Positions 175 through 43,536 of a stretch of 64,000 nucleotides of DNA are shown here, piece after piece (the first letter of the stretch is position 1; each line of letters starts with the position of its first letter). The notes beneath the pieces are model-generated. The model was not told the DNA's origin and ran no database searches. It worked only from the letters and a program-made list of their open reading frames with translations. Both the position numbers and the translations under genes were made by a program. This DNA is from Eledone cirrhosa (taxonomy: Eukaryota). The DNA is taken from NCBI GenBank assembly GCA_964016885.1, contig OZ024744.1, forward strand, positions 72,664,001 to 72,728,000, written 5' to 3'.

Positions 175-216
175 GGCTGACAGTCTGTTTCTCACTGTTT
201 GGCGTTTATCAAAACC
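175..216 (-). ncRNA. Minimal type-I hammerhead ribozyme motif (U3-A8 variant), probably from a PLE pLTR
   Basis: Minus strand reads ggtt-TTGATAA-a-cgc-caaaca-gtg-a-GAAA-CAGACTG-TC-agcc. Stem I is ggtt/agcc, stem II is cgc/gtg, stem III is quasi-palindromic, and the cleavage triplet is GUC. Confidence 0.6.
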
Positions 217-288
217 AGGCACTCCCCTGCTTAGCGAATGGTGTTCTAAATGTTTTTAATTAAACATACGGTATATTGCGTAATATAC

Positions 289-329
<41 letters not shown>

Positions 330-498
330 TGTATTTATCATTGTTGTGATATATGTATGGCCACTGCCTTCGGTCGCTTTTCTTGGCGTCACACTTTTTA
401 ATTGTTGTGTTTACTCTAGATGGTATTGTATTAACATGCTGCTCTATTGAGTGCTTTGTGATTGCTTTAAACAACTCGATTAGTACTTAGATTCATAC

Positions 499-545
<47 letters not shown>

Positions 546-589
546 TAGTGCTGCTCCTGAACACTAATTATTTTTTGCCAAGCTCTAAA

Positions 590-2250
590 ATTGGAGTGAC
601 AATAAACTGCACCCAGTAAACTTGGTAAAATGGTAGTATGGTAGTGCTGGTGTGAGGATAAAATGTAACCATTAAACTTTGTAAAGTGGTAGTGCTGGTG
701 TGACGATTAAAATACACCCAGTACACTCTGTAAAGTGGCAGTGTTGGTGGGATGATAATCGGACCCCTGTGCACTCTGTAAAGAGATATTGCACCCATTT
801 CACTTTGAAAAGTGGTAGTGTTGCTGTAACAATAAAATATATCTTTCTTTATTTGCCACAGGGGGGTACAAAAATGGGACATTACAAGACGTGACGGCGG
901 GGGTTTTACATAAAAATCATATAGCTTTAACATTAATAAATAACTATAAACAATATATAGTAAAATAATAATTGAAATCCCCAGTAGTGGGGAACGTTAC
1001 TGAAGGGTTGTTTTACACCCCATGGATAGAACAACCCTCAACACCAGGAACACGTTTGTAGGTGTTCCTGTCTTCCTTCTGTTTATCTTCCTCAACCTAC
1101 AGGTTTATATACAGAGAAGGCCCATTCACTCGGGCCATTTTTGCCCCATTCACCCACCTTTCAGCGAATTTACTGGGGTGTAGCACCTCTCTCTCTACTC
1201 TCACCTTCCTTCTGAAGTGATACTTAAAGAAGGGGTTAAGTTGTTGTCCGGAGAGAAAGGTGTTTGCCCTCAGTCCTTTTAACCTCATCCACCATATTAC
1301 CTCTTTCTCCATAGCCACCAGACAGAGGAAAACCGCCTCTCCTTCGTTCTTAAATGAAGGTGGCGGGGTGATCCTCACGATGGACTCGGCTGATAACTGG
1401 ATGCGTCCCACACGTGACAGCAGCTGTTCGACATAATTCCACAGGTCGGTCACCCCTGGACACTGAACAATTGCATGCAGAACGGTTTCGATGTCCTGCT
1501 CGCATCTTGGACATGTCCTTTTGGCAGGATCTCTGCCAGGTCGTCCTTGCCTGTAGATTTTGTCTCAAACTGGTAGAGCTCCTCGGTAGCACTGCCAGGC
1601 CAGAGACTTCTGGAAGTTATCCATAGGCTCTGGACGGAAAGTCCTCCTGAACAGACTGCTCAGTTCATCCTCCTCAATGCCTAGAGTTTCCCCAAGAATG
1701 TCGTCGCACTTATCCTCCACTAATCCCCTATAGAATGTCTAAGTGGAGTCTCCGCTGATTGCTGTTTCCGCTTGGTAGAGGGCTGTGAGCGCCTGTAGGC
1801 ACTCGAGGTAAAATATAAGCAGTACACTTTGTAAAGTACTGGTGTAAAGTGGTAGCATTGGTGCTATGACAATAAACATCCATGATAAAAAGCATCCAGT
1901 ACACTCTGTAAAGTAGTAGTGCTGGTGTCATGATAGAATGTACCCAGTTTACTCTGTAGCATAGTAGTCCGGTGTCATGATAGAATATACCCAGTCCACT
2001 CTGTAGCATAGTAGTCCGGTGTCATGATAGAATATACCCAGTCCACTCTGTAAAGTGGTAGCACTGATATTTTGATAAAATGCATTAAATGCACATTGCA
2101 AAATAGTTGGCATTAGAGAAGGCATCCAGTTGCAGAAATCATACTGAAATGAAAGCATATGAGCAAGATGTAATTTTCTGACTTGCCTAAACTCAAACCA
2201 TGTCAACCCATCCAGCCCAGAAAACAAATGTAAAATAGTAAAGATGACGA
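590..2250 (+). repeat. Degenerate array of the ~45-bp RTE-3'UTR/SINE module ending in an RTE-type tail, interrupted by an L1/Tx1 insertion
   Basis: Repeated 'cacccagtacactctgtaaagtggtagtgctggtgtca..ataaaat' units at 590-840 and 1818-2100, then 'gaaggcatccagttgcagaaa...aacccatccagc...gatgacgatgatg'. Confidence 0.65.
842..1808 (-). mobile_element. 5'-truncated L1/Tx1-clade LINE (ORF2 C-terminus and 3'UTR) with 9-bp TSD
   Basis: Minus strand encodes CPRCEQDIETVLHAIVQCPGVTDLWNYVEQLL (CX2C-X8-H-X4-C knuckle typical of L1/Tx1 ORF2). It ends with AATAAA. TAAAATATA is duplicated at 833-841 and 1809-1817. Confidence 0.8.
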
Positions 2251-3519
2251 TGATGTATAATGTTTTGAATAACACAATGCCTTGAACATAAAAGAATCAT
2301 AATTATAATACCTTACTCTCACAGGTATTCTTTACTTGCAAACCTCAAATATTCTTCTAATAGTTTAGAACTTTCTATTCACCAAGATATTGTTGTTTAG
2401 CATACTTAAGATCAAAGGAAAGGTTCCAACTGCATCAAAGCCATGTTTTTTTTTTTTCTTTATTTGCTTTACAAATTTAGTGTATCCAATATAACCTTCC
2501 ATTTTAAACTCTTTTGATACCAAAACAACATAAAAACACTTCAAGTTCTACAATTCAAAATTGTTTTTAAGTGCTTATATTTTTTTAAACAACCCTTCCA
2601 GCATGTTTCTTTTTTGAAAATTATTTTTGTTCGAACCATTTCTTTCATTAGGAATATGTGAACGAAAGGGTTGAGACAGAAAGGTGTGATTTGAGTGAGA
2701 ATTTGCTGCTATGAGCAACCACGTAGAGGCTCTGTCAGTGGTTGGTTCACCAAGGTATTTTTCCTCATTTGGTGGTTATGAAATAATCAAATGCAGGCTG
2801 GGTGGCTGGATCTATACAACAGTTATTTTCTAAAACTATTTAATGTTGATAATAGTGTGTATGAGAGAGAGAGATAGAGAGATAAAGAGAGAGAGATAGA
2901 GAGAGAGAGAGGTGGGGTGGGGTAGAACACAGAAAGAAAAAAAAAGGTAAAATTTAGACTTGAGTCTTGGTTTTTCTTTCTTTGAAAATTTGCTGTTTCA
3001 GAACCTTTTTCATTTTGATTTTATAACATTTTTCTTTCTTTCAAGCAATTTTTGGAATTTTTACTAAAGTGAACCAGATTGAATGGATATTATAAAAGTC
3101 ACAAACTACTATTCTCTCTCACTCTACACACACACATACATACATATATTTCTTCAGCCACTTGAAAAATTTTCTTGGCAATTTCTTATTTCTTTGAATG
3201 TCACGCCACACATTTTCGTTGTAACATCATCTTTGGGTGTTTCCTGTTATAAACGCTACTTATATATCATAAGCATTAACATTTTGCATTCAGAAGTTTG
3301 GTACTTTTTCTTTCATTATTTATTTATTTATTTATTTATTTGTTTATTTATCTTAGCATGAAGTTTTAATTTCATTGTTAAAATCTGTAGAAAAATAATT
3401 CATCAAAAATAAGTGTGTATGTGAGTGTATATATATATGATGTATATATATATATATATATATGATGTATATATATATATATATATATGATGTATATATA
3501 TATGATGTATATATATATA

Positions 3520-4098
3520 TTTATATATAAAGTTGTAGTTCCTGTCTGTTTGTTTGTTCACGAACTCCTCCTATGGTTTTGGAGATAGACCGCCGTAACA
3601 AGATATATTCTGAAACTACATTGCCCAGGGTACTTGGATAAGTATATTTCATTTTTATCAAAGGGTTCCCCGGGGCCGCAAAGCGCCGCTGAACATTTTT
3701 TCCCTTCAATTTATATGAAATTTAAACCATAAGTAAATGACAAGATATGATGCCTATTCATAAACTTTCAGCAAATTTCAATAATAGTAAGACACCCTAA
3801 TGAGGGTTAAACCCCCATGTTTTGGAAGCCCATAACTTGAGTATTGGAACCTCTATTATCACGGGGTTTTTCTATTAATTAAACGTAAATCAACAAAAAA
3901 ACACCTCTCTTTTCTAGTAAAATTTGACATCAACTTCGAAATCCTTAACCACTGTGAGTGTTTTAGCAAAATTGATAGCTCTAAGAAGAAGTGGTAAAGT
4001 GATGGATGAGTAGTAATTATTGATGTCGAATTTGATAAAACGGCAATGCTCCTTGTTGCATATGCTGTTGAACCAATCAATCAAAATTTCAGGTATAA
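3520..4098 (+). mobile_element. Probable Helitron/DINE-like non-autonomous 5' fragment
   Basis: Begins 'tatataaagttgtagttcctgtctgtttgtttgttcacgaactcctcc', resembling the Helitron 5' ends at 6349 and 9221. No 3' CTAG/hairpin seen. Confidence 0.4.
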
Positions 4099-4731: not shown

Positions 4732-4734
4732 AAT

Positions 4735-5258
4735 TATATCTAAAATCCTTTTACTAAGTCTACCTAAATCGGTCTTCGTAGGGTTAATAAACCGAATTCC
4801 GTCTGATCCAGGATGTTGAGATCAGAGGTGATTTTAAACCAGCATCGTTGATTTCATTAATGACGCTCCGGTTAGTTTTACGCTAATTCTTAGTAACAGC
4901 ATTATGTAGCAGTTGATGGTAAGCACTACGCTCCACTTGATATAGGTTGCCAGTTTTGTCGGAATGGACGTGTACGGCATTAGAATCCTTAATAGAACAA
5001 ATTCTATTCTTCAAGTCCTGCTTGAAGGAATTGCTCCTATTCCGAAATTTGATACTCCGTATGAGATCCAAGACATCATTTTCGAAGGGTAGCAATGCTG
5101 GGTTACTCGGAGGGTTATTGTAGGTTTTAAACCCAAATTTATCATGTTTGTTGTCTGCTTTTCCCTGATTATCGAAATAAAAGGCACGCCAACGCAACCT
5201 TTTAATGAACGCGTCTGTTTTCTGTATCAGGAGTTTTAGGTATGTTTTCCTGCTTATC
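4735..5258 (-). mobile_element. Penelope-like element ORF, N-terminal fragment
   Basis: ORF 4883-5260 encodes FIKRLRWRAFYF...FGFKT...FENDVLDLIRSIKF...SDKTGNLY, the PLE N-terminal region with a DKT/DKG-type motif. It has an in-frame stop and is truncated by (TA)n. Confidence 0.75.
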
Positions 5259-7812: not shown

Positions 7813-7844
<32 letters not shown>

Positions 7845-8015: not shown

Positions 8016-8268
8016 CGTAGGGTTAATAAGCCGAATAGAGGGGTTGTTCGGAAAATTGGATTTGTGATCCTTCAGGGTAAAGTGGGGAGAAATAGGGTCC
8101 AGAGGTTCTGTCCGGTCCAGGATGTTGAGATCAGAGGTGATTTTAAACCCAGCATCGTTGATTTCATTAATGACGCTCCGGTTAGTTTTACGCTAATTCT
8201 TAGTAACAGCATTATGTAGCAGTTGATGGTAAGTACTGCACTCTACTTGATATAGATTGCCAGTTTTG
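8016..8268 (-). mobile_element. Second fragment of the same PLE region as 4776-4960
   Basis: Shares 'ccaggatgttgagatcagaggtgattttaaacc...gccagttttgt' with 4808-4960 and is bounded by (TA)n on both sides. Confidence 0.75.
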
Positions 8269-9268: not shown

Positions 9269-9333
9269 GATATATAAATATATATATATATTATATAAAT
9301 ATATGATATATATGTTATATATATATATTATAT

Positions 9334-11046
9334 AGAGCGAATTGATCTAGATGAAATGCAGTTCGGGTTTGTGTCAGGAAAAAGTACCACAGACGCTCTT
9401 TTCATTGTACGACAACTACAGGAGAAGTACCTAGCTAAAAGTAAACCCCTATACTTAGCTTTCGTCGACTTGGAGAAGGCCTTCGACAGAGTCCCCCGTT
9501 CCATTATCTGGTGGGCTCTTAGAAAACTGGGTGTTGATGAATGGCTTGTGAGAGCTATACAAGCCATGTATAAAGAAACAGTTAGCAAGGTTAGAATTAA
9601 CAACGAATATAGTGAAGAGTTTAGTGTAAAAGTTGGTGTTCATCAGGGCTCTGTTCTTAGCCCCCTACTATTTATTATTGCCCTCCAGGCTATAACAGTG
9701 GAGTTCAAGACCGGCTGCCCATGGGAACTCCTATACGCAGATGATCTAACGCTCATAGCTGAATCAATGGCCGAGCTAGAGAAGAAATTCCAAACATGGA
9801 AGCACGGTCTAGAATCAAAAGGCCTTAAAATTAACCTAGCTAAGACTAAAGTTCTAGTTTGTAAGAAAGAAAATAAGGCAGCGCTCCCCTCCGGGAAGTG
9901 GCCATGCGCAGAGTGTAGGAAAGGCGTAGGTAGAAATTCCATTTTGTGTCCCAAATGCAAAGTTTGGGTGCATAAAAGATGTAGTGGGATCACAGGTAAG
10001 CTAACTAAGAACATAGATTTTACATGTGGCCGGTGTTCTGGGGATATAAGTAGCAGCAAGTGCCCACAAAATACTAGCTCTTTCAACTGCGCAGAGGGTT
10101 CTATAGAAATAGTTGACAGCTTCCGTTACCTGGGTGACAAAATCAGCAGTGGGGGAGGGTGCTCTGAAAGTACAGTAGCTAGTCAGAACTGGGTGGAAAA
10201 AGTTCAGAGAGCTTATACCACTATTAGCCGCTAAAGGGTTCTCCCTAAAAATGAAAGGCAGGCTGTACGATGCCTGCATACGAACAGCAATGTTGCATGG
10301 CAGTGAGACCTGGGCATTGTGTGCAGAGGATATACGTAGACTAGAGAGAAACGAAGCTTGCATGCTCCGCTGGATGTGTAATAGTAATATACGTGAACGA
10401 CAAAGCATAAACGAACTAAGGAAAAAATTAGAAATAAGAGGGATCAGATGTTGTTTACTAGAGAGAAGGCTACATTGGTATGGTCACGTGACGCGCATGA
10501 AGGATGATAGCTGTATAACAAAGTGCAGGGCAATAAAGATAGACGGTAGCCACGGAATAGGCAGACCCAGAAAAACCTGGGACGAGCTGATAAACTCCGA
10601 CCTCACACACTTACACCTCACCAAGACAATGTCACTGGACCGAGACCTTTGGCAGTACTCAGTAATAGAGAAGACCCGCCTTGCCAGTAGGCATCTCTAA
10701 CAAAATACACCCCGTCCCACCACCACCACCCCCACCGCATCCACACCACCCCGTTCTATGTAAAGTTATGTTGGTGCCGCGCCATCCAGGCCGAAACAAA
10801 TGAGATCGTGTAGGTGTCACGACAAAAAACACACAGTCCACGCTGTAATGTGGCCGTGTAGGCAACACGGTAAAAACCTCCCAGACCCACGCTGTAAATG
10901 TGGTTGGTGTTAGGAAGGGCATCCAACTGTAGAAAACCTGCCAGACAGTCCTATGCGAGCAAGAAAATCACTCTTGCCTCAAGTGGGACTACGCCCGTCC
11001 AAACCCATGCAAGCGTGGAACACGGACGTTAAACGTTGATGATGAT
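9334..11046 (+). mobile_element. RTE LINE family B, 5'-truncated RT with one frameshift
   Basis: QFGF...FVDLEKAFDRV...GVHQGSVLSPLLF...LLYADDL...FRYLG, then MLHGSETW and GRPRKTW in the next frame. Has a 3'UTR and (GAT)n tail. Confidence 0.95.
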
Positions 11047-11088
11047 ATATATGATATATGTTATATATATATATTATATATATATATA

Positions 11089-11133
<45 letters not shown>

Positions 11134-11135
11134 AT

Positions 11136-11167
<32 letters not shown>

Positions 11168-11613
11168 ATTATATGTATATTATATATATATATATATATT
11201 ATATATATATATAATATATATATGTATATTATATATATATATATATTATATATATATATAATATATATATGTATATTATATATATATATATATATTATAT
11301 ATATATATAATATATATATGTATATTATATATATATATATATTATATATATATATAATATATATATGTATATTATATATATATATATTATATATATATAT
11401 AATATATATATGTATATTATATATATATATATATTATATATATATATAATATATATATGTATATTATATATATATATATATATTATATATGTATATTATA
11501 TATATATATTATATATTATATATGTATATTATATATGTATATTATATATATATATGTATATTATATATATATGTATATTATATATATATATTATATATAT
11601 TATATATATATAT

Positions 11614-11645
<32 letters not shown>

Positions 11646-11749
11646 AATATATATATTATATATATTATATATATATAATATATATAATATATATATTATA
11701 TATATATAATATATATATATATATATTATATATATATATATTATATATA

Positions 11750-11814
<65 letters not shown>

Positions 11815-11822
11815 ATATATTA
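11047..11822. repeat. (TA)n/(TAT)n microsatellite tract
   Basis: Almost pure A/T alternating sequence. Confidence 0.95.
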
Positions 11823-14038
11823 TCATCATCATCATCATCACCGTTTTACGTCCGTTCTTCCACGCTAGCATGGGTTAGATGGGTTGTCCTGTTGTGGGCA
11901 GTGTCTGGTCGGCTGACCATGCCTTGCTCATACAGGAACTGATCTGGCTTGATTTCTACAGCTGGATGCCCTTCCTAACACCAACCTCATTTACAGTGAG
12001 TGCTGGGTGCTTTTTCGTGGCGCCTACACGTCCACTTTACAGTGTGGGCTGGGTGCTTTTTTGCCGTGGCACCTCCACGGCCACCTTGCGGTGGAGGGGG
12101 GGGGGCATATTGTTTATATGCTTCAGCATGTACCCATGGGAGGTCGGGTACCCTGTATTACTGCGTGACGCCAGAAGTCACGGTCGTGTGTCATTGATTT
12201 TGAGAGGTGTAGTTGGGTAAGGTCGGCTTTTATCACCTCATCCCAAGTCATCTTGGGTCTCCCCACTCCGCGGTTTCCATCAACTTCTAGTGCTCTGCAC
12301 CTTTTTATGCAGCTGTCATCCTTCATACGCATCACATGTCCATACCAGCGTAACCGCCTCTCCTGCACGCAGCATTTGATTCCTCTTATGCTCAGTCTCT
12401 CTCTCAATTCCTCTATGCTTTGTCGTTCACGTATATTACTGTTACACATCCATCGGAGCATGCAGGCTTCGTTTCTCTCTAATCTACGTAAGTCTTCCAC
12501 CTTCAGCGCCCAGGTCTCACTACCATGCAACATCGCTGTTCGGATACACGCATCATACAGTCTGCCTTTCATTCTGAGGGAGAAGCCTTTTGCAGCTAGC
12601 AGTGGTAGTAGTTCCCTAAACTTCTTCCATCCCGTTCTTACCCTAGTTATTGTACTTTCTGAGCACCCACCTCCGTTGCTAATTCGGTCACCTAGGTAGC
12701 AGAAGCTGTCTACTGTTTCTACAGGGCCCTCCCAGAGATTGGTGGTACTTGTTTCCTGTGGCTGTTTGCTTGCTGTTTCAGCACAGCTGCTGCATGTGAA
12801 TCCTACATTCTTAATTAAGCTTCCTGAGATCCCGCTACATCTCTTGTGTACCCATTGTTTGCATTTGGGGCAGAGAATGGAGTTTCTACCTACACCTTTC
12901 CTACATACTGAGCAAGGCCATTTCCCTGAGGGGATCTGGGTTCTGTTTTCTCGTCTACTTACAAGGACCTTAGTCTTTGTCATGTTGACTTTGAGGCCCT
13001 TTCTCTCTAGTCCCTGCTTCCAGGTTTGGAATTTATTCTCTAGTTCTACCATAGATTCAGCTATGAGTGCGAGGTCATCAGCATACAGGAGTTCCCATGG
13101 GCATCCGGTCTTAAACTCCTCCGTTATTGCCTGCAGGACTATGATGAACAGGAGAGGGCTAAGAACAGAGCCCTGGTGGACCCCAACCTGTACGCTAAAT
13201 TCCTCGCTATACTCATTGCCAATCCTAACTTTGCTTACTGCTCCCCTATACATGGCTTGTACCGCTTTCACAAGCCATTCATCTACTCCTAGTTTTCTAA
13301 GAGCCCACCAGATTACTGCACGTGGAACTCTGTCAAAGGCTTTCTCAAGGTCGACAAATGCCAAGTAGAGTGGCTTACTTTTAGCTAGGTACTTTTCCTG
13401 TAATTGCCTCACAAGGAAGAGGGCATCAGTGGTGCCTCTCCCTGGTACAAACCCAAATTGCATCTCGTCTATATTCACCCGGTCCCTAATCAGCTGTGCT
13501 ATAACTCTTTCTGTTACTTTCATGACCTGGTCCATCAACTTTATACCTCTATAGTTTCCTCTATCTAGTGCATCGCCTTTACCTTTGTAGCAGTTGACAA
13601 TGATGCTACTGCACCAATCTTTTGGTATGGACCCCTCTAGTATTACCTGGTTAACGATACGTGTGGTTATAGTGTGACCTACAGACCCAGATGCCTTCAG
13701 CATCTCGGCAGCTATACCCGATGGACCGGTTGCCTTCCCTATCTTCATATCTCTGATTGCCTTACTTACTACGCTGCCGCTGACTTGTACTGCTGGTCCC
13801 TCTATAGGGTCTACGTGGGGTAGGGTCTCTTCTTCCCATGCATTCTCCTCATTTAGTAATCTATCATAATGACTCTTCCATGCATCTTTCTTCTCAGCAC
13901 TTGTGAGGGCAAGCTCACCTTTATCATTCCGGATACACTTCTCTCCAATGACATCACAACTATCTCTGACACACTGCCTCGCAATCTTGAATACCTCCTG
14001 TTTCTGGTCCTCACGTTGTAAAACATGCTTGAATTTTC
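11823..14038 (-). mobile_element. RTE LINE family A, 5'-truncated, RT ORF uninterrupted (young copy)
   Basis: 541-aa ORF 12123-13748: KATGPSGI, NYRGIKL, QFGF, DLEKAFD, QGSVLSP, YADD, C4HC3 insert, FCYLG. (GAT)n tail at 11823-11840. Confidence 0.97.
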
Positions 14039-15331
14039 TATATATATATATATATAATATATATAATATATATATATATATATTATATATATATATATAT
14101 TATATATTATATATATATATATTATATATATATTATATATATATTATATATATTATATATATTATATATATTATATATTATATATATATATTATATATAT
14201 ATATATTATATATATATTATATATATATTATATATATTATATATTATATATATTATATATATATATATATTATATATATATTATATATATATTATATATA
14301 TTATATATTATATATATTATATATATATTATATATTATATATATATTATATATTATATATATATTATATATATATATATTATATATTATATATATATATT
14401 ATATATATTATATATATATATATATATTATATATATTATATATTATATATATATATTATATATATATATTATATATATATATTATATATATATATTATAT
14501 ATATATATATATATTATATATATACATATATTATATATATATATATATTATATATTATATATTATATATATATATTATATATATATATATATATATTATA
14601 TATTATATATTATATATATATATATATTATATATATATATATATTATATATTATATATTATATATATATATATATTATATATATATATATATTATATATA
14701 TATTATATATATTATATATATTATATATATTTTATATTATATATATTATATATATATATATTATATATATTATATATATATATATTATATATATTATATA
14801 TATATATATATATTATATATATATATTATATATATATATATTATATATATATATATTATATATATAATATATATATATAATATATATATTATATATATAT
14901 ATATATTATATATATATTATATATATATATATTATATATATATTATATATATATTATATATATATATATATTATATATATAATATATATATATAATATAT
15001 ATATTATATATATATATATATTATATATATATTATATATATATATATTATATATATATTATATATATATTATATATATATATATATTATATATATATTAT
15101 ATATATATATATTATATATATATTATACATATATATATATTATATATATATTATACATATATATATATTATATATATATTATATATATATATATATTATA
15201 TATATATTATATATATATTATATATATATATATATTATATATATATTATATATATATATTATATATATATTATACATATATATATATTATATATATATTA
15301 TACATATATATATATTATATATATATTATAC

Positions 15332-15363
<32 letters not shown>

Positions 15364-15701
15364 ATACATATATATATATTATATATATATTATACATATA
15401 TATATATTATATATATATTATATATATATATATTATATATATATTATATATATATATTATATATATATTATATATATATATATTATATATATATATATAT
15501 TATATATATATATATATTATATATATATTATATATATATTATATATATATTATATATATATTATATATATATTATATATATATTATATATATATTATATA
15601 TATATTATATATATATTATATATATATTATATATATATTATATATATATTATATATATATTATATATATATTATATATATATATATTATATATATATATA
15701 T
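14039..15701. repeat. 1.66-kb (TA)n/(TAT)n tract
   Basis: Nearly pure A/T low-complexity sequence. Confidence 0.95.
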
Positions 15702-16865
15702 AGAGGTACTCTCAGTAAAGTCAGGGTAGGAATGGAGTTTAGTGAGGAATTCCAGATACAAGTAGGAGTACATCAGGGTTCGGTCCTCAGCCCGCTCTTG
15801 TTCATTATAGTCCTCCAAGCCATAACAGAGGAGTTTAAGACTGGCTGTCCATGGGAACTTCTCTATGCTGACGATCTGGCTCTTATGGCAGAATCAGTAG
15901 AGGAGCTAGAGAATAAATTCCGGCTATGGAAACAGCAGTTGGAAGCAAGAGGACTGAGAGTAAATCTAGCTAAGACAAAAGTGTTGATGAGTAGAAAAGA
16001 GGACAAAACCCTGATTCCGTCAGGGAAATGGCCATGTTCGATATGCAGAAAAGGAACTGGCATAAATTCTATAAAATGCACACAATGTAGGTCCTGGGTA
16101 CACAAGAGATGTAGCGGGATAGCAGGCAAACTAACAGGTAGGGAGAAATATGTATGCAGTAGATGTACAGGGAAATTAGACAGTAGAAGTCGCACTGATA
16201 GACACATTTTTCAAATGCGAGAGGGCGCTATAGAAGTGGTGGATAGCTTCCGGTACCTAGGAGATCAGATTAGCATGGGAGGAGGGTGTTCCGAGGCCAT
16301 AGTATCTAGAATAAGGACGGGTTGGAAGAAGTTTAGGGAGCTGCTTCCTCTGTTGACGAAGAAGGGTTTCTCCCTGCGTACGAAAGGCCGGTTGTATGAT
16401 GCCTGTGTGAGGAGCGCGATGCTGCATGGTAGTGAGACATGGGCAGCTACCGCAGAAGATATGCGACGGTTGGAGAGAAATGAGGCAAGCATGCTCCGTT
16501 GGATGTGCAGTGTAAATGTGCGTGAACGACCCAGCATAAATGTGTTGAGAGAGAAACTGTGTCTGAGAGGGATAGAATGTAGTGTACGGGAGAGGAGACT
16601 GAGGTGGTATGGACATGTGATGCGCATGGAGGATGACCAATGGGTGAAGAAGTGCCAGGAAATGCCAGTTGAAGGAAGACGTAGTAGAGGTAGACCACGA
16701 AAAACATGGGCGGAGGTGGTGAGAACAGACCTCAGATCATTGAAGCTCACGGTGGAGATGACGAGGGACCGTGACGAGTGGAGAGATGCTGTGCTGAATA
16801 AGACCCGTCCCACCCTTGCAAGCAGGGAAAAGCGGACGTAAAATGATGATGATGATGATGATGAT
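15702..16865 (+). mobile_element. RTE LINE family C, 5'-truncated
   Basis: 369-aa ORF 15732-16841 with QGSVLSP, YADD, C4HC3 insert and FRYLG. The stop codon directly abuts the (GAT)n tail. Confidence 0.95.
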
Positions 16866-17008
16866 ATATATGATATATATATAAGATATATATATGATAT
16901 ATATATATATATATATAAGATATATATATATATGATATATATATATATTATATATATATATTATATATAATATATAAGATCAAAAGATGGTTAAAGGAGT
17001 TCCACGTA

Positions 17009-17075
17009 TTTTATTATGCGCATTTCAAAAACAAACATCATCATGCAATAATATTTGTGTTTTCATCAGATAAAA
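17009..17075 (-). ncRNA. Type-I hammerhead ribozyme motif with canonical core
   Basis: Minus strand: ttttat-CTGATGA-[~16-bp stem II, aaacacaaatattatt/gatgatgtttgttttt]-GAAA-TGCGCA-TA-ataaaa. Stem III is the palindrome ATGCGCAT. Confidence 0.8.
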
Positions 17076-17211
17076 CAGGAGGACATGATATGAAGGCTAA
17101 AAAACACTTGTGGATAGTGCAGTTTTAAATCAACATATGAAAAGTAATTTTAGATTGATGTGTGATATCTGCATTGCTTTATTGTACTACAATAAAACTC
17201 ACCTCCTACAT

Positions 17212-21930: not shown

Positions 21931-22437
21931 CTCCTGCTGACGCTGAGAAAGTCTGACATTTCCTTATTTGTCCTCCCAGCGCGGATTCCAAGAAGAACTC
22001 CGTATGAATGTACTTATATATGAGAGGTGAATATATATATCTGTATATAGGTGAACGCAAGCACGCAAGCTCTTTGTGTGTGTGTGTAGGTCCACACAGA
22101 TAAGTGTACGATTAATGACTCGGAATGCCTCTTTATAGGTGTGAGCACATGTGCATGTGGGTGTATATGTAGGGAGGAGGCAAGCAAGCAAGGGATTGGC
22201 ATGGGAATTCATAAAAACTCGACTACACACAGCAGTAATTTTGCCGATGTATTGGGGTGGGTGACAGCTCACGCCTGAATGGAGATGGCCAGTGGGCAGA
22301 TTTCAATGGTCAAGCACTATGATGACGTCACAAACTATCAACCAATCTAAGTGCCGTGCAAACAGGATGATGGCAGATGATAAAGTTTCGAAGGGTCGGA
22401 GTCCAGCAGAAAGAGAATTTGCTTTGAAATCACTAGA

Positions 22438-22528
22438 CGTATCTGAGGAACTTGCGAATCCAGAGTCCAGTTCGATCCACAAACAGATCGCACCTCGAGC
22501 TGTTCGCCGGAGAAACAATTGTAGTACG
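22438..22528 (+). ncRNA. Type-I hammerhead ribozyme motif with long stem II, in a probable PLE pLTR (~21935-22572)
   Basis: cgtat-CTGAGGA-a-cttgcgaa...cgatc-cacaaaca-gatcg...ttcgccgg-a-GAAA-CAATTG-TA-gtacg. Stem III is the palindrome ACAATTGT and the cleavage triplet is GUA. Confidence 0.7.
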
Positions 22529-22570
22529 AAATAAATTGTGTTCCAATGGATCTCTAATTCTTCGTTTTCC

Positions 22571-22613
<43 letters not shown>

Positions 22614-26900: not shown

Positions 26901-27410
26901 ATAAATTCCGACCTTACACACTTGCATATCTCTAAGACAATGTCACTGGACCGAGATCTTTGGCGCTACGCAGTAATACAGAAGACCCGCCTTGCCTATG
27001 TACAAAGCAAAACCTACAGTCAGTAGGCACCTCTTAACCAAATATACACCCCAATCCACTACCTACCCTATCCTCCCACTCCCACCAACACCACCCTCTC
27101 TCTGTAAAGTTGGTACCACAACATCCAGTCCAAATAAATGAGATCAAGATCATGTATGTGTCATGACAAAAACACACAGTCCACGCTGTAATGTGGCTGT
27201 GTAGGTAACATGGTAAAAAGTTCCCAGTTCCACACTGTAAATGTGGTTGGTGTTAGGAAGGGCCTCCAGCCGTAGAAAACCTGCCAGATAGTCCTATATG
27301 AGCAAGACACAGTCACCCGACCAACCTTGCCTCAAGTGGGACAACTTCCGTCTAACCCATGCTAGCGTGGAAGATGGACGTTAAACGAAGATGATGATGA
27401 TGATGACGAC
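23929..27410 (+). mobile_element. Near full-length but decayed RTE LINE family B (APE endonuclease plus RT)
   Basis: GVGIML, AYAPQ, GDLNSRVG, RNEEG, QIDYIL, QHSLVV endonuclease motifs and full RT motifs in several frames. Has a 17-bp duplication at about 25541-25574, a deletion near 26450 and a (GAT)n tail. Confidence 0.95.
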
Positions 27411-27586: not shown

Positions 27587-27622
<36 letters not shown>

Positions 27623-27741
27623 AAGAATTTGTAGTTTACTTGAAGCATTGTGTATGGTATACAATATTTGAAGTTTGAAAGCCACAACAATACAAGATGG
27701 ATGGAAAAACAAATGTGTTTTTACCTTAATTTATTTATATG

Positions 27742-27779
27742 TCCTGATATTTCAAGATTAAAATCTCTTCTTCCGAGGA
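27742..27779 (-). ncRNA. Minimal hammerhead motif with one core substitution (U4>G)
   Basis: Minus strand: tcct-CGGAAGA-a-gagat-ttta-atctt-GAAA-TA-TC-agga. Confidence 0.55.
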
Positions 27780-28060
27780 AAATAAAACGGACTAATCCAG
27801 TGTCTGATTTGGTGCACTATACCATGCTAGTGGAACTGAGTTGTTTCTCTTTAAATCTGCATAGACACATATATAGTAATACGCGATGACCCACATGTGC
27901 ATGCATACACGTGTGTGTGTAAGCACACATGCATGGATATAATTGTGTAAACACATGGATATAATTGTGTAAACACATGAATGCATAGATGAATAATATG
28001 CTCGTATGTGGGGCCTATGTGTACCCCTATGTGTAGTCTAGTGGCCCTCAAAATTAGATG

Positions 28061-29143
28061 TTGTGTGCCTAGTTCTATGTTAGGTATTGTGTGCCTAGTT
28101 TTATGTTAGGTATTGTGTGCCTAGTTCTATGTTAGGTATTGTGTGCCTAGTTCTATGTTAGGTATTGTGTGCCTAGGTCTATGTTAGGTATTGTGTGCCT
28201 AGTTCTATGTTAGGTATTGTGTGCCTAGTTCTATGTTAGGTATTGTGTGCCTAGTTCTATGTTAGGTATTGTATGCCTAGGTCTATGTTAGGTATTGTGT
28301 GCCTAGTTCTATGTTAGGTATTGTGTGCCTAGTTCTATGTTAGGTATTGTGTGCCTAGTTCTATGTTAGGTATTGTGTGCCTAGTTCTATGTTAGGTATT
28401 GTGTGCCTAGTTTTATGTTAGGTATTGTGTGCCTAGTTTTATGTTAGGTATTGTGTGCCTAGTTCTATGTTAGGTATTGTGTGCCTAGGTCTATGTTAGG
28501 TATTGTGTGCCTAGTTCTATGTTAGGTATTGTGTGCCTAGTTCTATGTTAGGTATTGCGTGCCTAGTTCTATGTTAGGTATTGCGTGCCTAGTTCTATGT
28601 TAGGTATTGCGTGCCTAGTTCTATGTTAGGTATTGTGTGCCTAGGTCTATGTTAGGTATTGTGTGCCTAGGTCTATGTTAGGTATTGTGTGCCTAGTTCT
28701 ATGTTAGGTATTGTGTGCCTAGTTCTATGTTAGGTATTGTGTGCCTAGGTCTATGTTAGGTATTGTGTGCCTAGTTCTATGTTAGGTATTGTGTGCCTAG
28801 TTCTATGTTAGGTATTGTGTGCCTAGTTCTATGTTAGGTATTGCGTGCCTAGGTCTATGTTAGGTATTGCGTGCCTAGGTCTATGTTAGGTATTGTGTGC
28901 CTAGGTCTATGTTAGGTATTGTGTGCCTAGGTCTATGTTAGGTATTGTGTGCCTAGGTCTATGTTAGGTATTGTGTGCCTAGGTCTATGTTAGGTATTGC
29001 GTGCCTAGTTCTATGTTAGGTATTGCGTGCCTAGGTCTATGTTAGGTATTGTGTGCCTAGGTCTATGTTAGGTATTGTGTGCCTAGGTCTATGTTAGGTA
29101 TTGTGTGCCTAGTTCTATGTTAGGTATTGTGTGCCTAGTTCTA
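28061..29143. repeat. 26-bp minisatellite, ~41 copies
   Basis: Unit ttgtgtgcctagttctatgttaggta, with two recurrent variants (gtt/ggt and tgtg/tgcg). Confidence 0.97.
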
Positions 29144-30771
29144 GTCTATTATTGATTTGTAGGTGTGTTGTGTCTATCATTAACGCTTCCTTAATTCTAA
29201 GATTGCCATAGATTCCTTTCTCTTGTTTCAACATTAACTGTTATTTTTAAAGCTTCCATAGTTTCCATCTAGTAAATTTTCAGTTATAAGGCATTGGTCA
29301 ACTTGAGGCTATAGTAGAAGAAAGATACTTGCTTAATAGTTGCCAAACAAACTCCTTAACCACACTGTCATACCTCTGCCTATCATCATCATCATCATCA
29401 TCACTGGGAGCCTTTTTTACCATGTCTCCTATATATATATCCTGTGTGTGTGCATTCATTCATGCATGCATGTATGCATGTAGTTCAAGATAAAAAAAAA
29501 AGACAAAGGAAACATTGTTTCCTTTGTCTGATTTGATGAGTTCCACCCAACCCGGTAAGCGAATGAAGTCTGGGATCTTGTTGATCAATTTGTTCGATTG
29601 TGCCCTCACAGGTTGAATGCTTAATAATTTATTTAAATTATCTGAATTTGCAAAGAAGCAATTGAACCCTGTTAACAGCATAAAATAGTAATGAGTGATG
29701 GTAATTCTTTCATTGTCATATTTTTTATAAAATATGCTCTACTTCAACTAATTAATGAAGTGTGATTAATTTACTGAAATTATTATTTCATTACTATGAC
29801 TAGCAGAAAAACCACCCTTTGTGTGATTTTACTCCTAGCATGTGTAGTGTGCATATTGATATTAGACGCAGATATATATGCATGTAGATATGATACGTCA
29901 AATAAAATCGTAATTGAGAATATACACAGAAATTGAAGAGAGACTGTGTTACACTGTCTTCTGTAATCAGTAAAGTAATCCATGATATATTTAAAAAAGA
30001 CAATATTATATATAAACTGCATTACGGTGAAATGTAATGAAAACGGAGAAAATTAGCAACGGAAATATAAACGTTATGATATAACGATGCAAATATTTGA
30101 ACGTTTATATAAGCAATATAATATAGCATCCGTTATATGATAACCAGAAGTATTGACATTTGAAAATTTTAAAAGAAGTGAATCTTAAAATAAGTAATCA
30201 TTATATTTAAGAATATTTATGTTTAATCAACAGCTGCAAAATTTTGTACATAAATTATTTATTTAAAGTAATCCAACTTATTTCACTAACGGGATAAAAA
30301 AATATATTCAGGACACAGTCCCACACTCCTCCCTTTATTATATTAACTTCACATATGATTCTTATATAAAATTGTTTTATATAAATTTAAATAGGAACCT
30401 TTAAAATGGGTAACTTCATTTCTTAAAGCTAAAGCCAATTTTGGCTGGATTTGTATTAAAAGGGTTAAAGTAGGCATAGGCAATTCTTTTCCAGCAGTGA
30501 GCCACATAGGATGTGACTCATCATAAGGTAGTCTGCACTACTAAAAATTTCAAGGCAATTTTGAAAGCCAAATAAACCACGTGACTCGTGGGTTGCAATT
30601 TGCTCATTATTCGGTTAAAGGAAATCACAAATGGATGGTCAGCGTGCAATTTTTTTTCTTTCATAATTTTTCTCTCTTTCTATCATCTTTCTTTGGAATA
30701 TAACTAAACAAAGTTTTTTGCATAAAATTATAATAGAAGGCTTTTAGATAAATGTAAATGCTTTAACATAA

Positions 30772-33766: not shown

Positions 33767-34886
33767 TCATCATCATCACTGTTTTACGTCCGTTCTTCCA
33801 CTCTAGCATGGGTTAGACGGGGTGTCCGGTCAGTTTACCTTGTCTTGCTCATAAAGGTACTGATTCTGGCTTAATTTCTACAGCTGGATGCCCTTCCTAA
33901 CACCAACCTTATTTACAGTGAGTGCTGGGTGTTTTTTTTCTGTGGCGCCTACATGTCCACATTACTGTGTGGGTTGGGTGCTTTTTTGTCGTGGCACATC
34001 CACGACCACTTTGCAGTGGGAGGTTGTAGGGGCATATTGTCTATATGCTTCAGCTTCGGCTTGTACCCACGGGAGGTTGGGTACTCTGTATTACTGCGTG
34101 ACGCCAGGTGTAATTGGGTAAGGTCGGCTTTTATCACCTCATCCCAGGTTTTCCTGGGTCTCCCCACTTCTCGGTTTCCATCGACTTCTAGTGTTCTGCA
34201 CATTTTTATGCAGCTGTCATCCTTCATATGCATCACATGTCCATATCAACGCAACTGCCTCTCCTGCACACAGCATTTGATTCCTCTTATGCTCAATCTC
34301 TCTCTCAATTCATTTATGCTTTGCCGTTCGCGTTTATTACTATTACACATCCATCTGAGCATGCAGGCTTCGTTTCTTTCTAATCTACGTAAGTCTTCCA
34401 CCTTCAGCGCCCAGGTCTCACTACCATGTAACATTGCTGTTCGTATACACGTATCATACAATCTGCCTTTCATTTTGAGGGAGAAGCCTTTTGCAGCTAG
34501 CAGTGGTAGTAATTCCCTAAACTTCTTCCATCCCGTTCTTACCCTAGTTATTGTACTTTCTGAACACCCACCTCCGCTGCTAATTCGGTCACCTAGGTAG
34601 CAGAAGCTGTCTACAGTTTCTACAGAGCCCTCCCAGAGATTGGTGGTACTTGTTTCCTGTGGCTGTTTACTGCTTGCTGTCCCAGCACAGCTGCTGCATG
34701 TGAAGCCTACATTCTTAATTAACCTTCCTGAGAACCCGCTACATATCTTGAGTACCCATTGTTTGCATTTGGGGCAGAGAATGGAGTTCCTACCTACACC
34801 TTTCCTACATTCTGAGCAAGGCCATTTCCCTGAGGGGATCTGGGTTCTGTTTTCTCGTCTACTTACAAAGACCTTAGTCTTTGTCA
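33767..34886 (-). mobile_element. RTE family A 3' fragment including the C4HC3 insert (His ligand mutated)
   Basis: ORF 34246-34899: KTKV...WPCSECRKG...CPKCKQWVLKIC...FCYLG. Confidence 0.92.
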
Positions 34887-36150
34887 GAACATTATTCATA
34901 CCTGTGCAACCATTTGATTGGCAAATTTCTAGAAGCTTTTATTTGTTTAGTATAACTATTTATCAAACAAAAACTACTTAACTATTTTCCTAGTGTAGCT
35001 TCAATTTAAAATATGCTCACAGTCAGCTATGATTCTTTAAAAATGTAGATATTGAGAACCAGGCACTGCTGGCTTCATGCATAGGAGAGGAAGATAGCCA
35101 AATACTAAGATTTGACCAATCACTTCCTTTTCATACGATTGAGACCCTTGGTGTCTTCCCTCCTCAAACTGCCATTTCCTCCATAAAATGAGAGGAGTGC
35201 ATCCTAGCTAAAGAAGGAGGTGGAATGGCTGATGCATCATGTATTTCTAGCTATTCTCCGTGACAATGTCATCACCATTTTGTCTGCAAAGTGCAGCTGA
35301 AATATACTCTCTCCCATCCCCTTACTCTCACTATTAAATTTTTGTTCTTTCTCTTGCATTTTTTTTTCTGGCAAACATACATCATAATTTAATAGAAATT
35401 TGTTAAATAATTGTTTCTACGTTAGGCACAAGGCTAGCAATTATCCAGTGCATTACTGGTACTTTATTTTATCGACCCCGTAAGGATGAAAGGCAAAGTC
35501 AACCTCGGCGGGATTTGAACTCAGAGAAATTTGTTAAATAATGTGTGTGTGTGTGTTTATTTGATTATATAGAACCAATGAGAAATCAACATAACATGAA
35601 CTTAGCTATTCCTCACTTCAGTTAACATAGGTTATGTCTTTTATCGAACCTCAGATATTTTACAAGATGGTGAATTGGCAGGGTCATTTGAACAACAGAT
35701 AGAATGCTTTGTGTTCTTCTTTCTGGGTTGCTACACTCTCAATTCAAATCCTGCTAAAGTCAACCCTACCTTGCACCCTTTCGAGGTCAATAAAAACAGT
35801 ACTGGGGCGATTCTTCCTGTATATTTCTTTCTAACTTCCTCTCTCTCTTTCTCTGAAAGATATCGGCTATGTTCAGACCTGAAGAGGGGATGGACTCCAC
35901 CAGGTTTAAAATGCCCCAAACAAGTCATATGTCCATTCGACGCCCCTATGAGATATTTTACAGACAGAATTAATAAGATAAATATGAAACTAATAATGAT
36001 TTTTGACACACAGTGTTTCCACAATGTTGTAAACTCTGATGTAGCAGACCTATTGTCAAAGGTGTTCTTGCTATGACCATCCATCCATTTTTCTTCAGGT
36101 ATTGTGTACTAGCCAAAGATAGAATAGCATTATTTGAGAGACAGCTTCTA

Positions 36151-36250
36151 CGGGGTGTCCCAAAAAATGTATACACACTTTGGTTACCTGTACAGGTAAT
36201 ATTTATTAGAAGGCTGTTGAAGTGTGTATACATTTTTGGGGGACACCCTG
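36151..36250. mobile_element. 100-bp Tc1/mariner-type MITE
   Basis: TA|cggggtgtcccaaaaaatgtatacacact ... agtgtgtatacatttttgggggacaccctg|TA, giving ~29-bp TIRs and a TA TSD. Confidence 0.85.
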
Positions 36251-36901
36251 TATTTCTATTAGACCGAGAACTGCATAACCCCACTCATCCACTTACTGGC
36301 TTCAAAGTATGATAGAGTTGTAACAAATAAACCATCGCTTGTTTCCTTGGATTCTACTGTTTCACAGCCATACCAGGATCTATTTTCATTTGAAAACAAG
36401 CAATATTGAAGCCATGCAAAACACCACATTTCATTACATGACAATATATTTTCCATCAGTGATCGTTTGGGTAAAACATTTTCATCTAAAACCAAAGTAA
36501 TTGTGAAGGCCGAAATATAATTATTCAGTTTCGATATCAAATTCTTTTGAGGGCAAATTTGTATTTTACTCCTCCAGAGTAAATAAATTATTTACTTAAA
36601 TTCAATCATTATACCCTAGAAAATATAACTTTTATAGCGTATAAGAAAACCCACATTTCAAACAAAACTATAACTCCAAGAAACAGCTTTCCACATCCAG
36701 ATCAGGAGCAGCAGCTATATATATATATAACTATGTTTGGTAAAGAGAGATGTACGTGTTAACCTCACACGGATATTGACAACGGATAGCAACTTGTTGT
36801 CGCGGCTCTTGTTTATTCTTTTGTTTTTCTGGCTAGAAGAAAACAAGGAATTCGAGAATCGGACGAGGAGTCAAACCATTATAGTAAACATTTCATGATT
36901 A

Positions 36902-36903
<2 letters not shown>

Positions 36904-36943
<40 letters not shown>

Positions 36944-37937
36944 TTTACGTCCGCTTTTCCCTGCTTGCAAGGGTAGGATGGGTCTTATTCAGCACAGCAT
37001 CTCTCCATTCGTCATGGTCCCTCGTCATCTCCACCGTGAGCTTCAATGATCTGAGGTCTGTTCTCACCACCTCCGCCCATGTTTTTCGTGGTCTACCTCT
37101 ACCACGTCTTCCTTCAACTGGCAATTCCTGGCACTTCTTCACCCATCGGTCATCCTCCATGCGCATCACATGTCCATACCACCTCAGTCTCCTCTCCCGT
37201 ACACTACATTCTATCCCTCTCAGACACAGTTTCTCTCTCAACACATTTATGCTGGGTCGTTCACGCACATTTACACTGCACATCCAACGGAGCATGCTTG
37301 CCTCATTTCTCTCCAACTGTCGCATATCCTCTGCAGTTGCTGCCCATGTCTCACTACCATGCAGCATCGCGCTCCTCACACAGGCATCATACAACCGGCC
37401 TTTCGTACGCAGGGAGAAACCCTTCTTCGTCAACAGAGGAAGCAGCTCCCTAAACTTCTTCCAACCCGTCCTTATTCTAGATACTATGGCCTCGGAACAC
37501 CCTCCTCCCATGCTAATCTGATCTCCTAGGTACCGGAAGCTATCCACTACTTCTATAGCACCCTCCTGCATTTGAAAAATATGTCTATCAATGTGACTTC
37601 TACTGTCTAATTTCCCTGTACATCTACTGCATACATATTTCTCCCTACCTGTTAGTTTGCCTGCTATCCCGCTACATCTCTTGTGTACCCAGGATCTGCA
37701 TTGTGTGCATTTTATAGAATTTATGCCAGTTCCTTTTCTGCATATCGAACATGGCCATTTCCCTGACGGAATCAGGGTTTTGTCCTCTTTTCTACTCATC
37801 AACACTTTTGTCTTAGTCCTCTTGCTTTCAACTGCTGTTTCCATAGCCAGAATTTATTCTCTAGCTCCTCTACTGATTCTGCTATAAGAACCAGATCATC
37901 AGCATAGAGAAGTTCCCATGGACAGCCAGTCTTAAAC
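36904..37937 (-). mobile_element. RTE family C, 5'-truncated, with 7-bp TSD
   Basis: Near-identical to the reverse complement of 15832-16865. GATTACA occurs at 36897-36903 and 37938-37944. Confidence 0.95.
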
Positions 37938-41559: not shown

Positions 41560-41612
<53 letters not shown>

Positions 41613-41645
41613 GTTATGTAATAAACAACATAAGATAATTATTTC

Positions 41646-41698
41646 ATTTACCAGTGGTTTCTTGAAGACAGATGTTGTATCTGTCTTCAGTCGTCAGA

Positions 41699-41701
<3 letters not shown>
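41646..41701 (-). ncRNA. Hammerhead ribozyme motif, stem I mostly lost
   Basis: Minus strand: ttt-CTGACGA-c-tgaagacagat-acaac-atctgtcttca-a-GAAA-CCACTGG-TA-aa, with a perfect 11-bp stem II. Confidence 0.65.
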
Positions 41702-41739
<38 letters not shown>

Positions 41740-41870: not shown

Positions 41871-41915
<45 letters not shown>

Positions 41916-41942
41916 GTATATATGTATGTATATATGTATATG

Positions 41943-41991
<49 letters not shown>

Positions 41992-42618
41992 ATATATATA
42001 TAGATATATATATACATTCTTTTGTTAACCTATTAAAACAAAGTGATGCATTCAATGTGGAGTTAGCAAATTATTGTTTGTTATGTGATGTACCCAATAA
42101 AATCATAATTCTATCCTGTCTCAGACATTTATCTTTCTAAAGTCTAAAGAATGTGTGGGTAAAATTGTCAATGTGAAATATTTGGACAACTTTATCATAA
42201 TTTTCAGCTGGTGTCATACATTATTTAATTTCCCTTTTCTCAGCTATTATCGTGATGTTCCCAGACTGTGAAACCCCCTGCTTTCATGCATATCTTCTAT
42301 ATTCCCTTCTGCCTCTTATAACTAATTTCTTTCTGTTTAGTCATTTTTTTTTTCCTACTGTAACATCTTGAAATAAATAACATCTATTTACATTTCTTTA
42401 TTTCTCTTATCTATAGTAAGTCAAGTTGAAGTCTAACAAGTTTAGTTTTAAGTTTTCTTATCTTAGAAGTACTAAGAACTTACAATTTTAATGCTTTTAT
42501 GTATGATTATCAAAATTTATTACCGTATGATTTTTCACATTCTAAATTTAGTAACTATTCCCTCTTTCTACTTACAAAATTTGAGTTGTATAATGAAAGC
42601 AGATTATCTATCTATCTA

Positions 42619-42679
<61 letters not shown>

Positions 42680-42810
42680 GTGAGGTTTTTTTTTACAAAA
42701 TGAAAAATAACCGAGGTGTCCTACACGAGTGGAAGTATAAAGAAAAAGGGATGAAATCGAAAATGCAACTGAAGTCTTATTTTTTTTAAAATATATATAT
42801 TTATTTGGTT

Positions 42811-42848
42811 CCTTTACCGGTTTCGCAGTTCTTCTGCTTTTCAAAAGG
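42811..42848 (-). ncRNA. Minimal hammerhead ribozyme (U3-A8 variant), left arm
   Basis: Exact reverse complement of 43499-43536. Confidence 0.75.
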
Positions 42849-43498
42849 TGAGTTGAGATGGAGGGTCTGTGGTTTTTCTCACATCTGGTTGGTCTCTAAA
42901 TGTTACTTGTTTTATATGGAAAAACTGGCTCGAAAACCAGGTTTTTCGAGAAGTAATTTGATTGGTTTGTCAATAATATACACACACACAAGCACACAAA
43001 TAAACACATATCTTCAGTCTCAATAGAAAATCTGAACTCTGACACCTGAACTCTGACAGCTGGCCATATTCACTGAACCAGAACATTTCTCCCAATCCCT
43101 TTTCCCTTGACCACTATCTCTCCATTGTCATAACATTCACTATAGACTACAGAATAGTTTTCCAAATAAGGGCGCAAAAATGTAATGAAAACTTGTTCAC
43201 GTGACAGCCAAATTTCATTTATAACCAACCAAAAAAAAGCCTTCGTGAGCCTCATTTTTTCAAGTAAAAAGAAATTCAAACACTCATATATGAAAAAACA
43301 ACCTGTGACAACCCCCCCTCTCTTATTTGAAGAACTATTGTAACGCGAACTGGCGCGAAATTTATTATAATTATTGACAAACCAATCAAATTACTTCTCG
43401 AAAAACCTGGTTTTCGAGCCAGTTTTTCCATATAAAACAAGTAACATTTAGAGACCAACCAGATGTGAGAAAAACCACAGACCCTCCATCTCAACTCA

Positions 43499-43536
43499 CC
43501 TTTTGAAAAGCAGAAGAACTGCGAAACCGGTAAAGG
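43499..43536 (+). ncRNA. Minimal hammerhead ribozyme (U3-A8 variant), right arm
   Basis: cctt-TTGAAAA-gcag-aagaa-ctgc-GAAA-CCGG-TA-aagg. Stems I and II are perfect, stem III is the palindrome ACCGGT, and the cleavage triplet is GUA. Confidence 0.75.

Follow-up and report, generated by a model that had tools for sequence, protein, structure and literature searches.

Hammerhead motifs in a 64-kb stretch of the Eledone cirrhosa genome and the Penelope-like element families that carry them

A 64-kb stretch of the Eledone cirrhosa genome (assembly GCA_964016885.1, contig OZ024744.1, positions 72,664,001 to 72,728,000; hereafter the window) contains seven hammerhead ribozyme motifs. All seven were found at the positions and on the strands that an earlier note on this DNA had given for them. 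The motifs are real, and their arrangement, at the 3' ends of Penelope-like elements (PLEs) and beside TA repeats, is already known. Specifically, each motif context is a repeat family; the six families (F1 to F6) are unrelated and multicopy, and the motifs lie in 5'-truncated copies. With high confidence, we interpret the motifs as the hammerheads in the 3' pseudo-long terminal repeats (pLTRs) of six independent PLE families, whose 5'-truncated copies are joined to (TA)n and whose ribozymes likely cleave only in tandem parent transcripts. The published basis for this interpretation lies in passages of PMC4209133, PMC8557442 and PMC11167929. Family membership, the coding parents of five families, the two 3' ends, the head-to-head arms and the TA junctions are established directly; the mechanism is what we infer from them.

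Seven motifs in six repeat families

The F1 insertion (38-292, minus strand), non-coding and retrozyme-like, has TA on both sides; its main arm (38-232) ends in a tail and is followed by a short inverted arm (about 233-292). Its hammerhead (175-216, minus) has a U3-A8 core and a bulged, extended stem I spanning 158-229, which makes it canonical in type rather than minimal, as the earlier note had described all seven. F2 is represented by the short-ended 3' end of a young Hydra-clade PLE (16976-17210, minus), again with TA on both sides and including a 42-nt inverted tail piece (17169-17210). The F2 hammerhead (17007-17077, minus; 17009-17075 in the earlier note) combines a consensus core with a long stem II and a perfect palindromic stem III. 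The F3 insertion (21998-22577, plus) is a truncated PLE 3' untranslated region (UTR) whose short end runs into TA, and its hammerhead (22438-22528, plus) has a consensus core, a branched stem II and a perfect palindromic stem III. F4 (27621-29248, minus) retains the last codons of a GIY-YIG endonuclease (29088-29248), the 3' UTR and the tailed end of an old Nematis-like PLE. A 26-bp minisatellite of about 42 copies (28054-29143, minus) has grown there from what is elsewhere a single-copy junction between open reading frame (ORF) end and UTR. The F4 hammerhead (27742-27779, minus) is minimal, lacks loop 3 and has a family-wide G at core position 4.

The F5 insertion (41611-41702, minus) is the 3' end, about 90 nt long, of a Hydra-type PLE, lying between two TA tracts. 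Truncation has removed the 5' arm of stem I from its hammerhead (41646-41701, minus), while relatives have a 6-bp stem I. Finally, the motifs at 42811 and 43499 are two arms of a single F6 insertion. The inverted arm (42673-42977, minus) carries the tail (42673-42735) and one hammerhead (42811-42848, minus). The main arm (42976-43611, plus) is the 3' UTR (636 nt) of a Neptune-like PLE that is young and has two ORFs; its short end runs into TA and its hammerhead (43499-43536, plus) has a U3-A8 core and a palindromic stem III. The common order of elements with a YUGANRA core, proposed for all seven motifs, is present in the others, but the F4 motif reads CGGAAGA and the F5 motif lacks one stem I arm. 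Stem III, described beforehand as palindromic or nearly so, is self-complementary in all six families.

Could such motifs be chance matches in AT-rich, repetitive DNA? A strict first descriptor recovered three of the seven, with four matches against a shuffle mean of 0.15. A relaxed descriptor, set post hoc with the motifs already seen, permits an unpaired first stem II position. With C3-G8 or U3-A8 cores it gave 5 matches in the window against a mean of 0.08 and a maximum of 1 in 100 block-wise dinucleotide shuffles. Freeing position 4 raised the count to 7 matches (six of the listed motifs and one unrelated), against a mean of 0.42 and a maximum of 3 in 100 shuffles. Because the relaxation was post hoc, this descriptor was tested on unseen DNA, namely 40 evenly spaced 10-kb stretches (400 kb) of the same 3.0 Gb genome (G000). 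There, it made 33 matches, spread over 18 of the 40 stretches; 20 shuffles averaged 0.4. The excess over shuffled sequence on which the earlier note's reading depended is therefore present in both the window and the sample. Chance would also be favored by the lack of any Rfam match at gathering score: a scan of the whole window returned no hammerhead, only microsatellite-driven microRNA matches, and scans of short regions gave HH9 matches below threshold for F1 only (an F1 relative reached 21.9 bits; the gathering score is 52). The natural core variants described below, G4 and an unpaired 10.1-11.1, are such that standard descriptors and Rfam miss these motifs. With the sampled excess, the fixed position relative to element ends, and covariation, we consider chance a negligible explanation.

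Bootstrapping over the sampled stretches (18-50 matches) yields an estimate of roughly 135,000-375,000 hammerhead motifs genome-wide, a large number. The density in the window (5 per 64 kb) is on par with that of the sample; thus, the window is not special, and the idea that it is a hammerhead cluster was rejected. At least 15-20 further hammerhead families were seen in loci L314-L353 and in the flanks of other loci, one of which (L319) has C at core position 4.

The six contexts, which the earlier note had rightly called unrelated, returned 2217 (F1), 683 (F2), 2426 (F3), 1493 (F4), 1525 (F5) and 898 (F6) candidate copies at first look. Per family, only the best 40 candidates were scored and 20 fetched, so the samples lean toward copies resembling those in the window. 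Best-copy identity is 97-100% for F6, F2 and F5, about 91% for F3, and about 80-85% for F1 and F4.

Coding parents, a non-coding unit and insertion junctions

By sequence continuity, five of the six families trace to predicted protein-coding PLEs: one Neptune-like, three Hydra-type and one Nematis-like. The earlier note's assignment of the motifs to type-I hammerheads of PLE pLTRs is correct. Upstream, F6 continues into a C-terminal GIY-YIG domain with a Cys linker, and a natural full-length copy (L022) contains both reverse transcriptase (RT; E 3.7e-07) and GIY-YIG (E 2.3e-06). Its DKG motif, Cx2-5CxxC linker and C-terminal GIY-YIG are those expected of the Neptune clade. F2 continues into a 749-codon frame (L129) with DKT, CxCx5C and CxxC/CxH, matched by eye, and the ORF ends upstream of the hammerhead in 6 of 20 loci. 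Together with the TA target, the DKT motif, CxCx5C linker and CxxC plus CxH point to the Hydra clade. In 14 of 20 F4 loci, the window copy included, the hammerhead lies 335-572 nt downstream of a GIY-YIG endonuclease; the RT motif SDKGxEF resembles Nematis rows, a likeness drawn from degraded copies by motif comparison only. Clade placement of F2, F6 and F4 is by motif comparison without a tree. A Hydra-type endonuclease with collinear UTR lies upstream in two of eight extended F3 loci and in two of five extended F5 loci, and these are the weakest links. Thus, the arrangement that defines endonuclease-bearing (EN+) PLEs, in which a PLE-type RT with a C-terminal GIY-YIG precedes the motif, is found for F6, F2 and F4, at two loci each for F3 and F5, and not for F1.

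Two candidate parents were rejected. Naiad was one, since every linked endonuclease is C-terminal. The other was a Hydra relic at 17705-18099 (minus) as source of the motif at 17009: its identity with the F2 frame is 41%, and another repeat and TA lie between. This relic and two further Hydra-type frame relics in the window, at 4847-5131 and 8016-8264 (both minus), are 36-41% identical to the F2 frame. PLE-type RT-endonuclease loci were also met in contigs labelled bacterial (L298-L313), where they are probably contamination from host animals.

F1 differs from the other five. Its tail leads directly into the sequence upstream of the hammerhead, so that a unit of about 316 nt is repeated in partial head-to-tail tandems. 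Spacing is 252-338 nt from tail to tail, mostly 301-320, and 279-308 nt from hammerhead to hammerhead (3 loci). The longest stop-free frame is 52 codons and GC content is 39%. No coding parent or partner PLE enzyme was identified among the fetched loci. A short non-coding tandem unit with one type-I hammerhead per unit is the structure of a retrozyme, and F1 appears, from its sequence, to be a small non-coding passenger. In most copies, a consensus splice-donor hexamer follows the long hammerhead stem (window about 128-137, minus). PLE pLTRs are known to contain introns.

The earlier note had taken every family to be non-coding, either a retrozyme or a solo pLTR that would amplify on its own. 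F1 fits that description. Most copies in every family are short and lack ORFs, and an F2 mini-structure with inverted tail (window 16976-17210; L050, L051, L052) shows an identical junction at three loci that are not linked. It is either a mini-family or a recurrent template switch; the recurring junction sits in a 5-nt microhomology, which speaks against self-amplification. In F6, F2 and F4, and at two loci each in F3 and F5, a nested series of 5' truncations extends without a break from the hammerhead into RT or endonuclease frames. The linked upstream frames refute the non-coding reading for F2, F4 and F6, and as an account of all six families we judge it improbable. The checks on flanks named in the earlier note gave multicopy flanks, tandems in F1 and upstream ORFs for five families. 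Thus, its view of non-coding families survives for F1, while F2 to F6 are truncated 3' ends of coding elements.

The junctions tell how copies arrive. Each family has two fixed 3' ends, one short and one extended by a tail, and TA usually follows both. From the anchors chosen, tails measure about 33 (F1), 46 (F4), 63 (F5), 68 (F6), 81 (F3) and 95 nt (F2). The short end is followed by TA in 17 of 17 F6 copies, 18 of 18 for F2, 14 of 17 for F3, 11 of 11 for F5, 21 of 30 for F1 and 4 of 7 for F4. At 20 F6 loci, the 5' junction is an inversion in 15, abuts TA in two, lies off the locus edge in two and is of another kind in one. Among 69 head-to-head pairs, delimited with anchors of our choosing and including a few overlapping fetches of one insertion, 62 join one tailed and one short arm, four have two tails and three have none. 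At least two of the seven exceptions are tandems cut at a locus edge. Truncated copies without inversion abut TA on their 5' side as well (F6 at L007 and L017, F2 at L064 and L066, and F5 in the window), and therefore TA is favored as the target.

The 5' truncation, partial tandems, inverted 5'-truncated copy and tail at one end are together the structure of PLE insertions, and all of them are seen here. Passages of PMC8557442 and PMC3846280 describe the tail at one end qualitatively, and PMC11167929 links tails to two internal RT start sites. All seven window motifs have a (TA)6+ tract 37-138 nt away on the 3' side (the background rate for 150 nt is 13%), and in the genome sample a tract lies within 200 nt on the 3' side of 24 of 33 motifs and on the 5' side of 4 of 33 (background 12%). 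The association claimed in the earlier note is real, but not as passive accumulation in TA tracts; it is a property of the insertion junction, on the 3' side.

Core variation and the proposed mechanism

The core C3 U4 G5 A6 N7 G8 A9 ... G12 A13 A14, or its compensated U3-A8 form, is present in six of the seven motifs. F4 departs from it: of 35 copies, 19 read CGGAAGA, 9 show CpG-decay forms and none has CUGA, so that U at position 4 is absent. Pair 10.1-11.1 is formed in F2, F4 and F6, and is unpaired in F3, F5 and 43 of 54 F1 copies; in the window the first stem II position is mismatched in the motifs at 175 (A-A), 22438 (A-A, at the base of stem II) and 41646 (C-A). Covariation, the other check named in the earlier note, is present in F1: the 3-8 pair is U-A in 38 of 54 copies, C-G in 12, U-G in 1 and something else in 3, and one stem II pair shows 5 double changes, counts inflated by kinship (few events, related subfamilies). 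The U3-A8 variant, which F6 has, is already known (PMC4209133). No same-strand partner of the same family lies within the 64-kb window, and the arms of F6 would pair together in a read-through transcript; the window copies are therefore likely inert. At F6 loci L026 and L028, two same-strand hammerheads lie about 4.7 kb apart, the arrangement needed for dimers. Lunse et al. reportedly described hammerhead variants in 2017.

We propose that the element's GIY-YIG endonuclease cuts (TA)n and that both target strands would prime reverse transcription at two points 3' of the hammerhead, the short site serving one strand and the tail end the other. Early termination and joining of both complementary DNAs would leave head-to-head arms with a single tail. 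The template would be uncleaved or re-ligated RNA, because every copy keeps both flanks of the cleavage site. Acting as a dimer through its palindromic stem III, the hammerhead would cut multimeric transcripts to size; this would call for two same-strand copies, as in partial tandems. F1 would be non-autonomous, moved in trans by a PLE enzyme. Cleavage at the predicted sites is putative.

The hammerheads might instead act mainly as RNA dimerisation or protein-binding signals, with the palindrome pairing two pLTRs, both target strands priming, and cleavage secondary. In favor of this, stem III is self-complementary throughout, while relaxation is seen at core position 4 in F4 and at the first pair of stem II in F1, F3 and F5 (missing in 12 of 33 sampled motifs). 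The strict one-tail asymmetry of the head-to-head pairs counts on the same side, as does insertion in vitro without need for cleavage, as presented in PMC11167929. Set against this, the C3-G8/U3-A8 compensation points to selection acting on the catalytic fold, and Naiad PLEs, as described in PMC8557442, are without hammerheads yet make the same inverted, tailed insertions. A mainly structural role is, in our estimation, unlikely.

Several points weigh against PLE-borne, cleaving hammerheads as we interpret them. The F3 and F5 parent links comprise two loci each, cross long microsatellite-rich UTRs with nested insertions, and are blurred by the many other Hydra relics in the genome. Catalysis may be weak or absent given the G4 core of F4 and the mismatches in stem II, and, taken singly, most motifs fold no more favorably than shuffled sequence (z +0.9 to -3.1). 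In vitro, both strands began at the same sites in the experiments of PMC11167929 to which we refer, unlike the asymmetry proposed here. The kinship within F1 and the choice of anchors for the 69 pairs count on the same side.

F6 reading frames and comparison with known systems

In the F6 parent (L022 3424-6887, minus; G000:C3), a 400-residue coiled-coil ORF1 overlaps the RT-endonuclease ORF2 by 88 nt in the -1 frame. Thus, unlike the single ORF of the Neptune clade, F6 has two overlapping frames, and GxKF and DKG motifs precede the first Met of ORF2. Among the 25 best copies, a U6-A run lies in the overlap in all 25 and the phase is -1 in 22. The N-terminal motif was located in 37 of 95 related loci in other collections. 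In ten of those 37, which represent about eight lineages (31-52% identity), a U6 run lies in phase 12-22 codons ahead of the stop of the upstream frame; the remainder are mostly more distant, and two have instead a long in-frame extension. A slippery heptamer in phase is thus conserved near the end of ORF1. A hairpin of -7.8 kcal/mol lies 7 nt downstream of the F6 site, and those of relatives are variable (-4 to -17 kcal/mol).

A profile of ORF1 gathered 1019 clusters, the best 150 all below 550 residues. FL occurs in the last 30 residues of 61 of 87 full-length members, against 10, 2 and 4 in the preceding windows. A Pfam search with ORF1 gave no consistent family. The predicted structure would have five long helices, and a fold search returned no match at E 0.001; the other matches were weak ones to designed coiled coils. 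A language-model lead toward Gag, itself fairly strong, was rejected on these grounds: helices only, no fold match, no consistent Pfam family and nothing beyond the weak coiled-coil matches.

We think it probable, from these patterns, that the F6 RT-endonuclease is made by -1 ribosomal frameshifting rather than by splicing or a downstream start. A splice acceptor at the junction is disfavored: AG follows the U run in F6 and six of ten relatives and is absent in four, and 24 of 61 ORF1 proteins have a residue after FL that does not allow AG. An internal ORF2 start remains as an alternative: in many homologs the annotation places a Met 25-35 residues ahead of GxKF, where F6 has GTG. Contigs from two untyped runs showed no informative joint across the F6 ORF junction.

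The text of PMC8557442 calls EN+ PLEs single-ORF, while the legend of its Fig. 1 allows an optional frameshifted coiled-coil ORF1, clade unnamed; PMC5408684 mentions esterase ORFs in Neptune-like elements. Our literature search, with figures, subscription papers and Repbase entries outside its reach, came upon no account of Neptune elements with a frameshifted ORF1. We offer only tentatively the broader possibility of an undescribed, widespread EN+ PLE subgroup that joins RT-endonuclease to a conserved coiled-coil ORF1 by -1 fusion (gag-pol-like, about 1,000 clusters, no Pfam match), and of PLE insertion in vivo as an obligatorily asymmetric double priming, with the short site used by one strand and the tail end by the other, which would also mobilise a hammerhead retrozyme. 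If not already described, the frameshifted ORF1 alters the single-ORF picture of EN+ PLEs.

Elsewhere in the window, several RTE-type long interspersed nuclear element fragments abut long degenerate TA arrays at 9299-16841, 24848-27026 and 34246-37853, with two frames near 650 codons (by eye), and a 25-bp GC-rich tandem repeat at 63331-64000 runs past the window end.

The families are new; earlier publications already cover PLE ends with hammerheads, the targeting of TA, inversions and tails. As hammerheads are known to go with PLEs, the motifs by themselves only add to the catalogue, and the main value lies in the side findings and the tests they open. In particular, the very young F6 and F2 families offer intact natural copies in which to study the hammerhead's role in PLEs and the origin of tails and inversions.

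With the hammerheads of the closest published account, those in the window share type I topology, a tiny palindromic stem III and the U3-A8 variant, and F4 shares an extra base after A9. As in that account, the genome has many unrelated families, mostly as single truncated copies, with opposite-strand pairs 100-700 bp apart. That account stresses a conserved G10.1-C11.1 pair, whereas F1, F3, F5 and other families are mismatched there and F4 has G at position 4. F2 and the Hydra clade, as Craig et al. (2021, PMC8557442) characterize it, have in common DKT, the CxCx5C linker, C-terminal CxxC plus CxH, the hammerhead and the (TA)n target, and the endonucleases of F3 and F5 are of this type too. 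None of the six families has a hammerhead like that of Hydra-1_oBim in File S2 of that paper, and the tails described there measure 30-40 bp, against 33-95 nt here. F6 ORF2 shares with the Neptune clade GxKF, DKG, RT, a CxxxxCxxC linker, C-terminal GIY-YIG and the TA target; it is the -1-frame ORF1 that sets F6 apart. Finally, F1 resembles animal non-LTR retrozymes, as portrayed in sections of PMC7229834 and bioRxiv 10.64898/2026.07.22.740005, in unit size, GC content, lack of coding capacity, canonical-type hammerhead and partial head-to-tail tandems. Unlike them, it is dispersed as 1-1.5 units, with no long arrays among the loci. Also unlike them, F1 has the PLE insertion signature of tail, head-to-head inversion and TA target, which is direct structural support for mobilisation by PLEs. 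F1 ties animal retrozymes to PLE integration structurally, not via co-occurrence.

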